A stretch of 64,000 nucleotides of DNA from Planctomycetota bacterium. GTDB taxonomy: Bacteria > Planctomycetota > GCA-002687715 > CAIWVZ01. The stretch is from assembly GCA_044222185.1 (NCBI GenBank), contig JBGANV010000001.1, positions 1,120,001-1,184,000 of the forward strand. Reading direction: 5' to 3'. Positions 45,017-49,316 of this stretch are shown piece by piece; position 1 is the stretch's first letter; each line of letters begins with the position of its first letter. Below the pieces are notes generated by a model. It was given only the letters and a program-made list of their open reading frames with translations. It made no database searches and was not told where the DNA came from. The translations under genes and the position numbers were made by a program.

Positions 45017-46864
45017 ATGACCTTGGTCGACGCAACCGTTGCTGAACTTCCTCCTCGCGCCAGGACTTCCGAGGGCCCGGTGCACGCGGACGAGGCTCGG
45101 TCATACGCGCAGCAACCGAAGGCGCGAAGGCGTGGTGCCGGCGGCTGGCTTCTCCTCGCCGTGGGCGTCGCCGGCTCCGGCGTCGCCGACGTCGTGCTGA
45201 CTCACCGCGTCCCGCTGTCGCCTGCAGACCTCGCACTCGTGCGCGGCGGGCCGTCGCCCAACGTCGCCGTGGGATGGCTGGCGGGATTGCTCGGATCGGA
45301 CCTCCTCGTCTGGCGACTCTTCGGCGCGATCGGGGTCGTGGCGCTCGCGTGCGCGACGGCGTTCGCGAGCAGCCGGATGGTCGGGACCAGGCGGGCTGCC
45401 GGGTTCGGTGCCGCCGTGGTGCTTCTGCATCCACTCGTGAGGACCTGCGAGCTCGACGTCGACGGCTGTTCGGGGATCTGGGCGACGGCACTCGCGGTCT
45501 TCGGACTCGGACTCGCCCGAGACTGCGTGGCGCGGCGGTGGGTCGGCGCGGCGATCGCGCTCGCGGCCGCCGGTCTCCACTCCGCTGCGAGCGCCCCGTT
45601 CGCCTTGGTGCCGTGGGCACTACTGGGATCCGGAGCTGACGATCGCAGGCAGGCACTGCGCACGCTTCTCGCATGCGCCCTGGGCTGCGCCGGCGCGAGC
45701 GCGGCGTCGATGCTTGCACACGCGACCGCCGCAGGTGAGATCGCAGGCGGTGCAGCCGACACGATGAGGAGCCTCGTGGCGCTCGCGGGACGCGACGGCA
45801 TCGCGGAGCCGTTTCGCTGGGCCACACCGGTCGCGGCGTGGTTCCTGCTTCTTTGCGGCGGGCTCGTTCGGGCCCGCGACGCTCAGTCCGGGCCGGCGGC
45901 GCTCTTCGCCGGCATCGCCGCGGTCGCGACGATCCTGCCTGGAGTCGTCGTTACACGGCGCGGGGTCGCGGATTCCGATCTCGTCGGAGCCGTCACGTGC
46001 CTCGCGATCGCGGCTGGTTCCGCAGGCGTCACGACGACGTGCGCTCGGCGGTGGGCCATGCTCGCGGGCCTGGTCCTGCTCGCGGCCGTTGGGACCTCGA
46101 CCGTCGGCGACTACGCGATGCGCGAACTCCCCGCGCGCGCTGCCGTCGCGAGCTTCGCCGGCCACTGCGACCAGCTCCCGCTCGATCGATGCCAGACGGT
46201 CTGCATCGTCGGAGCGGACGACCCGATGCTGGCGGTGGCGCGCCGCCACGCGGCTGCCGACGGGGCCTTCCGCGCCGTTTCGATCCGGCGACTGGAGGAA
46301 CTCGGCGCAGCGCCCCTCGATGCCGCAGTCGCCGTGCTCCGGTGGGGCGCACCGGCGGACGAGGGGCTGCTCGCGGAGGCGCCGCCGACCCTGCAAACCA
46401 TCGTCGTCGGATCGATCTCCGCAGAGATCGAGCTCGTGTCGCCACCGCCGGACGTCGTGTGGCCTGCGAGGCGCGCCCGCGACGAACCGTCCTTCGAGTT
46501 CAGGTTGCCCTCGGACATGACCCCGACGAGCGCGAACCTCACGTTCGTCGCCGTCTCGGAGCACGCGGGTCGCCCCCACAGCCTCCTGCGGCGCCTGGAC
46601 GCGAGCGTCCTGCGGCGCAGTCGTGACGACGGTCCGCCACGTTGGATCTGGCACCCCACCTGGCGATCGAGCGTGCACGCCGACAACGAACTCCACTGGG
46701 AGGACGGCGACTTCGGCGCCCACACGTCATCGATCCGATGGACGATCGCCGTCTCCGATCGCGAGGCCGATCACGACGATGCGCCCGACGCACACGACGA
46801 CGCGCCGTTCGGAGCCAACGTCCGGCTCGCGCCGTTCCGCACGCTCACCGTCGGGCCGAAATAG
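45017..46864 (+). CDS. Polytopic membrane protein with soluble C-terminal domain (possible GT-C-like)
   Basis: About ten hydrophobic Ala/Leu-rich segments followed by a polar domain; no diagnostic motif; start uncertain. Confidence 0.5.
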   Translation: MTLVDATVAELPPRARTSEGPVHADEARSYAQQPKARRRGAGGWLLLAVGVAGSGVADVVLTHRVPLSPADLALVRGGPSPNVAVGWLAGLLGSDLLVWRLFGAIGVVALACATAFASSRMVGTRRAAGFGAAVVLLHPLVRTCELDVDGCSGIWATALAVFGLGLARDCVARRWVGAAIALAAAGLHSAASAPFALVPWALLGSGADDRRQALRTLLACALGCAGASAASMLAHATAAGEIAGGAADTMRSLVALAGRDGIAEPFRWATPVAAWFLLLCGGLVRARDAQSGPAALFAGIAAVATILPGVVVTRRGVADSDLVGAVTCLAIAAGSAGVTTTCARRWAMLAGLVLLAAVGTSTVGDYAMRELPARAAVASFAGHCDQLPLDRCQTVCIVGADDPMLAVARRHAAADGAFRAVSIRRLEELGAAPLDAAVAVLRWGAPADEGLLAEAPPTLQTIVVGSISAEIELVSPPPDVVWPARRARDEPSFEFRLPSDMTPTSANLTFVAVSEHAGRPHSLLRRLDASVLRRSRDDGPPRWIWHPTWRSSVHADNELHWEDGDFGAHTSSIRWTIAVSDREADHDDAPDAHDDAPFGANVRLAPFRTLTVGPK

Positions 46865-46964
46865 TCGTGGCCCCGAGAGGGGTTCTCACGCATGATGCGG
46901 CTTCGGCGCGACACTGAAGGCCCGTGCACGCCACGAACGGTCGCTGCCCGCGGAGTCCACCGCC

Positions 46965-47648
46965 ATGACCACACTCCCGAAGTCCGAGACCCGTCCCGAC
47001 GGCCGTCCAGCCATCGACGTCCTGCAACCAACCGAGGTGCAGACCGCCACGTTCGCGTTGGGTTGATTCTGGGGACCCGACTCCCAGTTCGGGAGTCTCG
47101 ACGGTGTGGTGCGCACCCGCGTCGGCTACGCGGGCGGCACGAAGCTCGAACCGACCTACCGAGACCTCGGTGATCACACGGAGACCCTCGAGCTCGACTT
47201 CGACCCCGCGAGAATCTCGTACGAGGCGCTCCTCGACGTGTTCTTCTCGACCCACAACGCCTGCCGCAAGCCGTGGAGCCGCCAGTACGCATCGATCGTG
47301 TTCTGGCGCGGCGAGGCGCAGCGAGCACTCGCGATGGAGGCCGGCCGCGCGATGGAGGCCAGATCAGGCAAGCCCGTCGTCACCGAATTCGTCGAGTTCG
47401 GGAGGTTCTGGCTCGCGGAGGACTACCACCAGAAGTACTCGCTGCGCCGAGTCCCGGAGATCGCGCGCGAATTCACCGACATCTACCCGCGGCTCGAGGA
47501 CTTCGTGAATTCGACCGCCGTGATGCGAGCCAACGCCTGGCTTGGTGGGCACGCCACGCGCGCGCAGGTCGACCGAGACTTGATGGGGCTCGGCCTCTCC
47601 GCCGGCGCGCAGAGGCTGCTTTCGCGGTTGACGCGAAACGGCGGGTAG
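46965..47648 (+). CDS. msrA: Selenocysteine-containing peptide-methionine (S)-S-oxide reductase MsrA (Sec34)
   Basis: GGAG RBS, ATG at 46965, TATFALG-TGA(47064-47066)-FWGPDSQFG..GVVRTRVGYAGG, DHTE, QYAS, FWLAEDYHQKY. The TGA sits at the Cys of GCFWG. Confidence 0.92.
47079..47097 (+). promoter_or_regulatory. Putative bacterial SECIS hairpin
   Basis: GACTCCC-AGTTC-GGGAGTC: perfect 7-bp stem starting 12 nt after the UGA, with G at the second loop position. Confidence 0.8.
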
Positions 47649-47661
47649 GCCCGCGAGAGCG

Positions 47662-48603
47662 CTATTTCCCAACCCAATACAGAGCCGCGGCCGCGATCTG
47701 GAGTTCCATCATCAGCAGGTACATGTTCCGCCAGGCGCGACGGTCGCCTGCGTCGGCGAGATGCGCGGCGTCGCGGATGAGCGAGCGCCCGGTCCACACC
47801 CCGTGGGCGGCGATCAGCACGCCGACGATCGTGCTCGCCGTCGGTGGCAGGCCCAGGAGCGGGCGGTCCGCGACGACGATCCGCGGCAGGGCGATGAGCA
47901 GCAAGCCCGGCAGGCAGAGGAACGGAGCCACGAGCCGCGCCGCCATCGTCGGCCCGAAACGGATCGGAAGCGAGCTCGCTCCGCCCTGCCGATCGCCCTC
48001 GACGTCTGCGAAATCCTTGGTGGGCGCGGCGCCGATCACGAAGCAGAAGAACACGGCGCCGAGGATCCAGGGCTCGCGATCGGAGAAGATCGGGGCCAGC
48101 GTCCCCCATCCGGCCACTTTCAGCAGGAGCCCGCGCGGGATTGCGATCACGAGCGGCCCGAACCACCAGGAGTTCCGGGCGCGCAACGGCGGCGCCGAAT
48201 ACGCCCACGTGAGCCCGGCCGTGAAGGCGACGATCCAACCGACCTCGAACTCGCCCGTCGGCGTCACGAGAAACGCCAGCGCGACGGCCACGGCGTAGAG
48301 CACGAGCGTGCCGACCCGCGCCGCGCGAAGGCTCATGGCACCGCTGGGAATCGGGCGATGCGGCTTGTTGATCCGATCCAGGGCGAGGTCGTGGATCTGG
48401 TTCAATGCGTTGCTCGCTGCATTGAGCGTCGCCGCCATCAGGGCTCCCGCGAGCACGAGCCAGAATGCCCGCGCACCGGTGACCACGGCGCGATGGGCGC
48501 CCAGCGCGGAGAAGGCCCCGGAGATCATCCCGATCGCGGGCGGCAGCAGCGTGAACGGCCGCGTGAGGTCGATCCACGCTCGAACGGCGCCAGGGCGCTT
48601 CAT
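47662..48603 (-). CDS. UbiA-family prenyltransferase with homogentisate-prenyltransferase-type motifs
   Basis: RPFTL, NQIHDLALDRINKPHRPIPSG, AYSAPPLR, IAIPRGLLL, KDFADVEGD; multiple TM helices. Confidence 0.88.
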   Translation of the reverse strand: MKRPGAVRAWIDLTRPFTLLPPAIGMISGAFSALGAHRAVVTGARAFWLVLAGALMAATLNAASNALNQIHDLALDRINKPHRPIPSGAMSLRAARVGTLVLYAVAVALAFLVTPTGEFEVGWIVAFTAGLTWAYSAPPLRARNSWWFGPLVIAIPRGLLLKVAGWGTLAPIFSDREPWILGAVFFCFVIGAAPTKDFADVEGDRQGGASSLPIRFGPTMAARLVAPFLCLPGLLLIALPRIVVADRPLLGLPPTASTIVGVLIAAHGVWTGRSLIRDAAHLADAGDRRAWRNMYLLMMELQIAAAALYWVGK

Positions 48604-49316
48604 GCCGCGCCTCCGGCAACCGTGAGCCAGGCTCCGACGGCCGCAGCGCAACTGCTCGATGCGAAGTTCACGCCCTCGTTGTTCAAAACGCCTCGTCGCT
48701 CGAGGGTCGCGCCGATGAGGCTGTCGACGAGAGAGCCCGCGAGCCCGCCGACGACGATCGCCCACCGGAATACGCCGTCCGTCGCCGCGACGGCAGTCGC
48801 CGTGATCGCACCACCGACCAGGGAGAAGAATACTCCCGCCCACGTCATGCCGCCGTCGGTTCCGCGAATGACCATGGGGCCGAAGAGCAGAAGCCGCGGG
48901 GTCTCCCGCGCCAGCATCCCCCACTCCCCGGCGACCGTGTCCGCGAGCGATCCGGCGAGTGCTGCAGCCGCTGCGGGAATGGTCCAGACCGACCACTCGG
49001 GGCGAGCGGCGCCCAAGATCAACACGATGGCCGCGGCGCCCGCATTGGCGACGACGTGCCGGGCCGAGCGCCGCCCGCCGGCCTCCTGCGCCACACCCAG
49101 CCGGGCCTTGCGGGCGATGCCGGTCCGTGAAGCGCCGGTTCCGACGACGACGAGGCTCAGGAACGCCGCGATCACCGACGCGCCGCCTTCCCACGCAAAC
49201 CAAAGCGCGTGGACGAATCCTGCGAAGATGCCCGAGCGCGTTCCGGCCCGGATCAGGACGACCGGGACGGTGAGCGCCGTCGCCGTGACGATCGCGGTTG
49301 CAAGTTCGTGGCGCAC
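48600..49316 (-). CDS. DUF92/TMEM19 family membrane protein (VTE6 phytyl-phosphate kinase-like)
   Basis: RSARHVVANAG, LADTVAGEWG, GTDGGMT, GSLVDSLIGATLE, LNNEGVNF. Confidence 0.88.
   Translation of the reverse strand: MRHELATAIVTATALTVPVVLIRAGTRSGIFAGFVHALWFAWEGGASVIAAFLSLVVVGTGASRTGIARKARLGVAQEAGGRRSARHVVANAGAAAIVLILGAARPEWSVWTIPAAAAALAGSLADTVAGEWGMLARETPRLLLFGPMVIRGTDGGMTWAGVFFSLVGGAITATAVAATDGVFRWAIVVGGLAGSLVDSLIGATLERRGVLNNEGVNFASSSCAAAVGAWLTVAGGAA

Follow-up and report, generated by a model that had tools for sequence, protein, structure and literature searches.

Can a reading frame that lacks its active site in the public annotation be part of a complete selenoprotein gene? This question is raised by an msrA locus in a window of 64 kb, i.e. 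the whole stretch of DNA that was analyzed (JBGANV010000001.1:1,120,001-1,184,000). The window belongs to the Planctomycetota genome GCA_044222185.1 (7.08 Mb, 16 contigs, 93.8% complete). A first-pass annotation made from the sequence had proposed that the locus hides a methionine sulfoxide reductase A with selenocysteine (Sec) at the catalytic position. In our analysis, 46965-47648 is with high confidence a genuine, conserved and mis-annotated Sec-MsrA gene. The gene structure, the family membership, the fold, a conserved TGA, a conserved and covarying hairpin and the Sec machinery are all supported by the data presented here.

Gene structure of the msrA locus

As the first-pass annotation had described, the open reading frame called under translation table 11 starts downstream of the active site (Table 1). 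The protein of this locus in the public collection is the same shortened form (P0002, 180 aa, 99% identity, 79% of the query). Upstream of the call, the frame runs on to an ATG preceded by a Shine-Dalgarno-like GGAG. This extension passes through a single in-frame TGA and, when translated with TGA as U, reads TATFALG-U-FWGPDSQFGS around the codon. Besides U34, the 227-residue product contains C100 within HNAC as its only Cys; the extended frame, its TGA and this Cys had been correctly read from the letters before. Between about 46850 and 47650, across the TGA, GC3 periodicity keeps to the frame of msrA. The deposited 180-aa product is without the active site, and the real product is very probably the 227-aa selenoenzyme.

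A stop codon is located 23 codons upstream of the ATG at 46965, and therefore there is no room for an N-terminal signal in the window msrA. A lipobox-like N-terminal Cys signal (...LLSC, ...LVGC) was seen in many orthologs, among Sec as well as Cys forms (L021, L025-L029, P0009, P0011, P0015, P0020 and others). Judged by this signal, these orthologs would be exported lipoprotein MsrAs.

The neighborhood of the gene was examined from 45017 to 49203. An ORF on the same strand (45017-46864, +; 615 aa) with many hydrophobic segments and strong coding periodicity ends 100 nt before the msrA ATG, and a Pfam search with it gave zero matches. A UbiA-family prenyltransferase (47662-49203, -) converges on msrA from downstream. 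Among these neighbors, no redox-related gene was found beside msrA.

Table 1. Location of the features of the msrA locus (window positions) and of the AhpC/TSA-family matches with TGA in the same genome
Feature	Position	Strand	Remarks and basis
Shine-Dalgarno-like GGAG	46952..46955	+	9 nt spacer to ATG; direct sequence reading
Full msrA CDS, very probably a selenoprotein	46965..47648	+	227 aa plus stop; ATG 46965-46967, TAG 47646-47648; translation with TGA=U
PMSR catalytic domain, about residues 27-160; C-terminal helical domain, about residues 161-227	within 46965..47648	+	
Predicted Sec codon UGA (U34), G-U-FWG active-site motif	47064..47066	+	Sequence, translation, ortholog column
Predicted SECIS hairpin	47079..47097	+	Stem 47079-47085/47091-47097; apical loop AGUUC 47086-47090
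Cys100 codon (HNAC), candidate resolving Cys	47262..47264	+	Translation
Table-11 ORF without active site	47106..47648	+	GTG start, 180 aa; ORF list and public protein collection
AhpC/TSA match with TGA	C10:154985-155350		
AhpC/TSA match with TGA	C12:29260-29616		
AhpC/TSA match with TGA	C14:21886-22251		
AhpC/TSA match with TGA	C7:47213-47575		
AhpC/TSA match with TGA	C14:193954-194409		
AhpC/TSA match with TGA	C1:395554-395904		
AhpC/TSA match with TGA	C1:1682483-1682833		
AhpC/TSA match with TGA	C8:167099-167413		
AhpC/TSA match with TGA	C5:71202-71375		
AhpC/TSA match with TGA	C4:240626-240979		
AhpC/TSA match with TGA	C1:1626992-1627336		

The msrA product is a two-domain MsrA

The full-length product matched Pfam PF01625 (PMSR) over residues 27-160 with 125.9 bits (cut-off 23.7). 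The score against TIGR00401, the canonical MsrA equivalog, was 105.1 bits and thus under the cut-off of 108.1, which points to a divergent MsrA subfamily. The window protein did not reach an E value of 0.01 with PF20939 (Selenoprotein methionine sulfoxide reductase A, helical domain), a model that matches the homologs P0003, P0042 and P0119.

The best solved relatives were all Sec-MsrA of Clostridium oremlandii (CoMsrA; 4LWJ, 4LWK, 4LWL, 4LWM, 4U66 and 7C13; E 3e-48). The alignment to these chains covers query residues 25-205, extends past the catalytic core and reaches chain residue 187 of 208-209. An AlphaFold2 model calculated with 20 homologs had a mean pLDDT of 92.1, and its C-terminal third was helical, with helices at 158-226. 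In Foldseek, the model aligned to 4LWL/4LWJ over 202 columns (TM 0.90 on target, 38-39% identity) and to canonical MsrAs over only about 150 columns. [quoted passage not shown] The pocket residues Y65, E73, Q107, Y108, H155 and Y158 are all present and are invariant or nearly invariant in the alignment of 20 homologs. The window protein is a two-domain MsrA of the C. oremlandii type and a further member of a known family.

The TGA is conserved at the catalytic column

The relatives search covered 41 genomes, that is the window's genome and 40 relatives. It returned 12 near-full-length matches (45-56% identity; own 100%), all of which had a single TGA each. Stops were also seen in two weak partial matches. 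The remaining matches were canonical MsrAs, which had at most 46% identity, aligned in the core only and had zero stops. All 11 of the relatives' loci that were fetched carried the TGA at the same column. The best 80 of about 580 confirmed matches in species-representative genomes gave TGA in 75 and TGT or TGC in 4 cases, and L117 was the one locus of the 80 without a codon call. Pooling these best 80 of about 580 with the 11 relatives, TGA was found in 86 of 91 genomic loci. A metagenome scan was seeded with Cys-type proteins, and the best 80 of about 580 matches contained 73 TGA and 7 Cys codons. Since both scans retain the best 80 of about 580 matches, their fractions apply to the closest relatives, not to the family as a whole. 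The orthologs are also related to each other, so that the loci cannot be counted as independent events.

In 20 aligned database homologs, all necessarily called without recoding, the Sec column contained Cys in 19 proteins and Trp in one (P0003, GWFWG). The Cys in 19 of the 20 homologs, together with the TGA of the genomic and metagenomic loci, establishes the Cys/Sec pairing that was anticipated among orthologs. The Trp of P0003 may be a TGA read as W under a non-standard code, or a true TGG.

Record titles assign the TGA loci to Chloroflexota, 'delta proteobacteria'/Desulfobacterota, Nitrospirota, Planctomycetota, Acidobacteriota, Actinomycetota, Bacillota, Synergistaceae, Calditrichaceae MAGs and others. 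The first-pass annotation had described Sec-MsrA as a protein of a limited set of organisms. This view did not hold, since the two-domain subfamily is mostly Sec across many phyla. Among the best 80 of about 580 matches per scan, helical-domain MsrAs of sediment, sludge and groundwater bacteria from many phyla are overwhelmingly Sec-encoding, and standard gene calling therefore truncates this subfamily systematically.

A conserved hairpin follows the TGA

Starting 12 nt after the TGA, the sequence GACUCCC/AGUUC/GGGAGUC forms a hairpin of 7 perfect pairs with an energy of -11.5 kcal/mol when folded alone. The loop AGUUC begins 19 nt after the UGA. According to the legend of Figure 2 in PMC13188914, a bacterial SECIS has a loop of 3-9 nt, a stem of 4-16 bp, a spacing of 16-37 nt and an energy of -7.5 or lower, and a G stands within the first two loop positions. 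The window hairpin fits these rules with its loop of 5 nt, stem of 7 bp, distance of 19 nt and energy of -11.5 kcal/mol. Its loop also fits with G as the second base, followed by U. The hairpin and the early loop G had been noted at first sight, and both stand.

As a control, the fold energy was compared with shuffled sequences. In this DNA of 67% G+C, the 47-nt segment folded with -16.1 kcal/mol, which corresponds to z = 0.19, and 101 of 200 shuffles folded as well. Because the fold energy is unremarkable, chance is a possible origin as far as the single sequence is concerned, and the functional case rests on comparative data.

Pairing and covariation were analyzed in 83 distinct genomic Sec forms, taken from the best 80 of about 580 matches and from the relatives' loci. 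The 7-pair helix was paired in 81% of the cells, compared with 75.2 ± 0.7% after shuffling (0/500 as high) and at most 58.5% after sliding of the partner columns. Covariation was 0.176 versus 0.080 in the shuffled set (0/500 as high) and did not exceed 0.075 when slid. The three inner C-G pairs were near-invariant (80, 82 and 83 of 83), and the two outer stem pairs were found in about half of the 83 sequences, the window's included. Double changes (C-G/A-U/U-A and U-A/G-C) occurred 16 times at pair 18-32 and 11 times at pair 19-31.

The hairpin is coding, and therefore synonymous sites are a sharper test. This set contained 151 distinct Sec forms and 11 Cys forms from genomic and metagenomic loci (best 80 of about 580 per scan). 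Conservation at synonymous sites was confined to the hairpin. The Gly codon of the 3' arm was GGG in 143 of 151 Sec forms; at two further conserved Gly positions within these 48 nt, GGG was used in 23 and 21. The Arg codon was CGG in 109/113 Sec forms, and the third base of the Ser/Ala codon was C in 148/151. The loop was GGUUC in 110 of the 151 Sec forms, AGUUC as in the window in 22, AGUUU in 16, GGUUU in 2 and GUUUC in 1. The core CCC-RGUUY-GGG was present in 140 of 151 Sec forms but in 2 of the 11 with Cys (p = 5e-8 in a Fisher test that ignores kinship).

The 11 Sec forms without this core still form alternative hairpins. In three of them, the metagenomic loci L190, L194 and L199, AGG replaces CGG as the Arg codon, and GGA-GUC or GGA-GCC replaces GGG-AGU in the 3' arm. 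The stem is shifted by one register and closes a 6-nt loop (AGGUUC/U); this compensated change involves an amino-acid replacement. The comparative sequence data support the hairpin at 47079-47097 as the probable SECIS element of the gene. Its near-invariant core could serve as a simple detector for helical-domain Sec-MsrA.

Selenocysteine machinery and further TGA-containing genes

The window's own genome encodes the complete set of Sec factors that had been predicted for this organism. Searches gave 487 bits for selA, 330 bits for selB, 371 bits for selD and 74.7 bits for tRNA-Sec, all above the curated cut-offs. The tRNA-Sec gene is located 80 nt downstream of selA and has the anticodon TCA in ARAGORN. 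Sec use in some Planctomycetes has been published before (PMC4807772). About 0.5 kb past selA and tRNA-Sec, a DinB-like ORF and a glutaredoxin-family gene (107 aa, WCPDC) were observed (locus L012, C1:1631125-1634218). The latter is the only Pfam glutaredoxin-family gene of the genome.

Further mis-annotated selenoproteins had also been expected, and several candidates were found. The selD gene (C14:427704-428624) itself contains one in-frame TGA, in the motif GGG-U-ACK. Among 29 AhpC/TSA-family matches in the genome, 11 contain one in-frame TGA (Table 1). In 10 of these 11, the TGA is at a classical redox motif (PG-U-T once, W-U-GPC/W-U-PPC seven times, G-U-IFC once and W-U-IAC once); the eleventh, FT-U-PPF, is less clear. 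These genes presumably form an expanded Prx-like selenoprotein set that is truncated or split by standard annotation. A formate-dehydrogenase-like gene (C6:198655-199224, -) carries its TGA in CNRT-U-HAPSV. At least a dozen further TGA-containing redox genes mark the organism as a heavy selenium user.

The other TGA genes were found by family searches, in place of a genome-wide de novo screen for TGA codons in frames whose GC3 looked coding both before and after them. This screen had produced 40,743 raw candidates, of which 463 passed the thresholds tried. Both this msrA and selD were lost from it because their upstream segments are short. A second formate-dehydrogenase-like match with TGA (C6:194519-194701) was rejected because the U, at position 59, stands almost at the end of the 61-residue match and is probably an ordinary stop. 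The model NF041383 (VPGUxxT thioredoxin-like selenoprotein type 2) was also tried. It retrieved only two MsrA genes from the genome, with 26 bits against a cut-off of 275, and this weak match is due to an MsrA-like segment inside the model and does not indicate membership.

Independent contigs and alternative explanations of the TGA

Independent sequence was available from Logan contigs. In X2, which comes from a different study, a 190-nt piece corresponding to 46943-47132 has the TGA intact, and its sole difference is a C>T exchange at 47102, a synonymous change from GAC to GAT. Further differences between X2 and the window within msrA are at 47192 and 47273, and all three are at third codon positions. 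A 229-nt contig from the metatranscriptomic library X20 covers 46912-47138 with zero differences. Since DNA can occur in RNA libraries, this contig speaks only weakly for transcription. The X5 and X8 pieces over msrA are short or partial.

The alternative that survives best is that the UGA terminates and a 180-aa protein without nucleophile is made from the GTG at 47106, or that a near-cognate tRNA reads the UGA as Trp or Cys. The public gene call agrees with termination, and a misreading tRNA would find a parallel in the W at the Sec column of P0003 if this is a TGA=W translation and not a TGG codon. However, the residues upstream of 47106, with the P-x-ID and TATFALG-U-FWGPD blocks, rank with the most conserved parts of the family. 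The shortened form would be without the catalytic motif and strand 1, and its GTG start at 47106 falls inside the conserved block GVVRTRVGY. The genome also has a dedicated tRNA-Sec and SelB, and the gene a SECIS-type hairpin; we consider both variants of this explanation very unlikely.

We regard it as more improbable still that msrA is a pseudogene, inactivated when its catalytic Cys codon mutated to a stop, in a cell that uses its canonical msrA. Such a second gene does exist in the genome (C10:71428-71886, canonical Cys-MsrA, 219.7 bits, no stops), and under table 11 the frame is indeed interrupted. Yet of 171 related loci (best 80 of about 580 per scan plus 11), 159 have TGA at this column, and apart from it the frame is unbroken and shows coding periodicity before and after the TGA. 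The confinement of all three X2 differences in the gene to third codon positions is at odds with a dead gene, as are the hairpin, whose synonymous sites are conserved in TGA forms alone, and the Sec machinery of the genome. A sequencing or assembly error that conceals TGC or TGT, although a single-base error is always possible in an assembly of 16 contigs and 93.8% completeness, is the least probable explanation and can hardly be entertained, as X2 from a different study and X20 from an RNA library both match at 47064-47066 and the TGA is common to the orthologs.

Cys100 and the distribution of Sec and Cys forms

The Sec-MsrA encoded in the window differs from most of its database homologs at residue 100. 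Of the 20 aligned database homologs, 17 have Thr at this position and one each has Glu, Ser or Cys. Among the planctomycete-sample orthologs, Cys was found in 9/11. Cys100 replaces the Thr of the HxPT motif and stands seven positions before Gln107/Tyr108. The stretch from Cys100 on corresponds to the mobile L2 loop of CoMsrA (PMC4479559). Cys100 heads this L2-equivalent stretch and therefore could act as a resolving Cys, which we put forward as a hypothesis.

A tree was calculated with FastTree from 180 rows, of which 146 were Sec and 28 Cys forms; 6 canonical MsrAs served as outgroup. The motif filter left out L056, L060, L069, L094, L098, L104, L109, L111 and L114; L117 and duplicates were also left out. 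The two-domain subfamily formed one clade (FastTree support 100). The Cys forms were scattered among the Sec forms with at least 13 state changes, of which at least 6 are forced by well-supported branches, in a tree that is a quick build from biased sampling. Some metagenomic Cys-form loci with TGC still have a complete or near-complete hairpin; it is core-identical in L137 and retains 6/7 pairs in L125 and L143, and L126 belongs here as well. From their sequence, the hairpins of L137, L126, L125 and L143 look like fossil SECIS elements left after recent Sec-to-Cys conversion. The scattered Cys forms taken together with the kept hairpins suggest that Sec-to-Cys conversion has occurred repeatedly, which we offer as a lead.

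A joint reading of these observations is conceivable, although we consider it rather doubtful. In a first part, a 1-Cys Sec-MsrA scaffold would have gained the resolving Cys100 in the planctomycete lineage; in a second, the two-domain subfamily would be ancestrally Sec, with a single, sequence-conserved SECIS (CCC-RGUUY-GGG) throughout the bacteria. If the first part were true, the selenenic acid would be resolved via an intramolecular Se-S bond, and thioredoxin-type recycling might replace glutaredoxin. If the second were true, Cys forms would have arisen from Sec forms secondarily and more than once, and would still bear fossil hairpins.

Proposed mechanism

We infer actual Sec insertion, enzyme activity and a recycling route as follows. 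The UGA would be decoded as selenocysteine when the hairpin binds SelB carrying Sec-tRNA-Sec and thereby delivers it to the ribosome. In the protein, Sec34 would attack the sulfoxide of Met-S-O and be converted to the selenenic acid. The pocket for this reaction would be made by Tyr65, Glu73, Gln107, Tyr108, His155 and Tyr158, and the C-terminal helical domain would maintain the form of the active site. After oxidation, the enzyme would be recycled by a thiol reductant, either glutaredoxin-like as in C. oremlandii or following an intramolecular Se-S bond with Cys100.

Comparison with known systems

This family was already established, and so were its structure, the catalytic advantage and the SECIS-dependent decoding; what is known of how Sec-MsrA works is not changed by the present finding.

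The hairpin shares its general design with the E. coli fdhF-type SECIS and the bSECISearch consensus. Each is a coding-region stem-loop that follows closely 3' of the UGA; the apical loop is small and has G then U near its 5' side, and the spacing is within 16-37 nt. Beyond these general rules of the model, the window hairpin and that of E. coli fdhF are presumably unrelated in sequence.

Canonical Cys-MsrAs of the E. coli, bovine and M. tuberculosis type (TIGR00401) have the PMSR fold and the catalytic motif in common with the window protein, at an identity of at most 46% that is restricted to the core. They differ in that they have no helical domain and combine a Cys nucleophile with C-terminal resolving Cys residues. 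Where they show HDPT...GNDxG, the window protein has HNAC and a shorter loop.

Selenoproteome surveys have reported the same selenoprotein family elsewhere. Sec-MsrA is included in the selenoproteome table of Syntrophobacter fumaroxidans (PMC1794560), and MsrA is among the selenoprotein families of the GOS marine metagenomes (PMC2398784). No mention of a Sec-MsrA of Planctomycetota was found in the survey passages considered; supplementary lists such as S9 of PMC4807772, which concerns planctomycete selenoproteins, could include one.

The nearest known system is CoMsrA from Clostridium (Alkaliphilus) oremlandii OhILAs (PDB 4LWJ, 4LWK, 4LWL, 4LWM, 4U66 and 4W8C). CoMsrA is a native selenoprotein with Sec16 and no Cys, and its Sec form is 20-fold more active than the Cys form (PMC4333827, PMC4479559). 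Its reductant is glutaredoxin and not thioredoxin, and its active site stays formed only with the C-terminal helical domain (PMC4333827, PMC4479559). Both proteins have the UGA at the nucleophile of G-U-FWG and combine the PMSR domain with a C-terminal five-helix domain. The CoMsrA pocket consists of Tyr47, Glu55, Gln89, Tyr90, His137 and Tyr140 (PMC4333827), and these residues map with an offset of 18 onto Y65, E73, Q107, Y108, H155 and Y158 of the window protein, whose N-terminus is 18 residues longer. The hosts are different, a high-G+C member of the Planctomycetota for the window protein and a Firmicute for CoMsrA. In contrast to CoMsrA, which is of the 1-Cys type and has Val at the corresponding position, the window protein contains Cys100. 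It thereby falls outside the 1-Cys subtype, which is a label of CoMsrA and no criterion for the family to which both enzymes belong.
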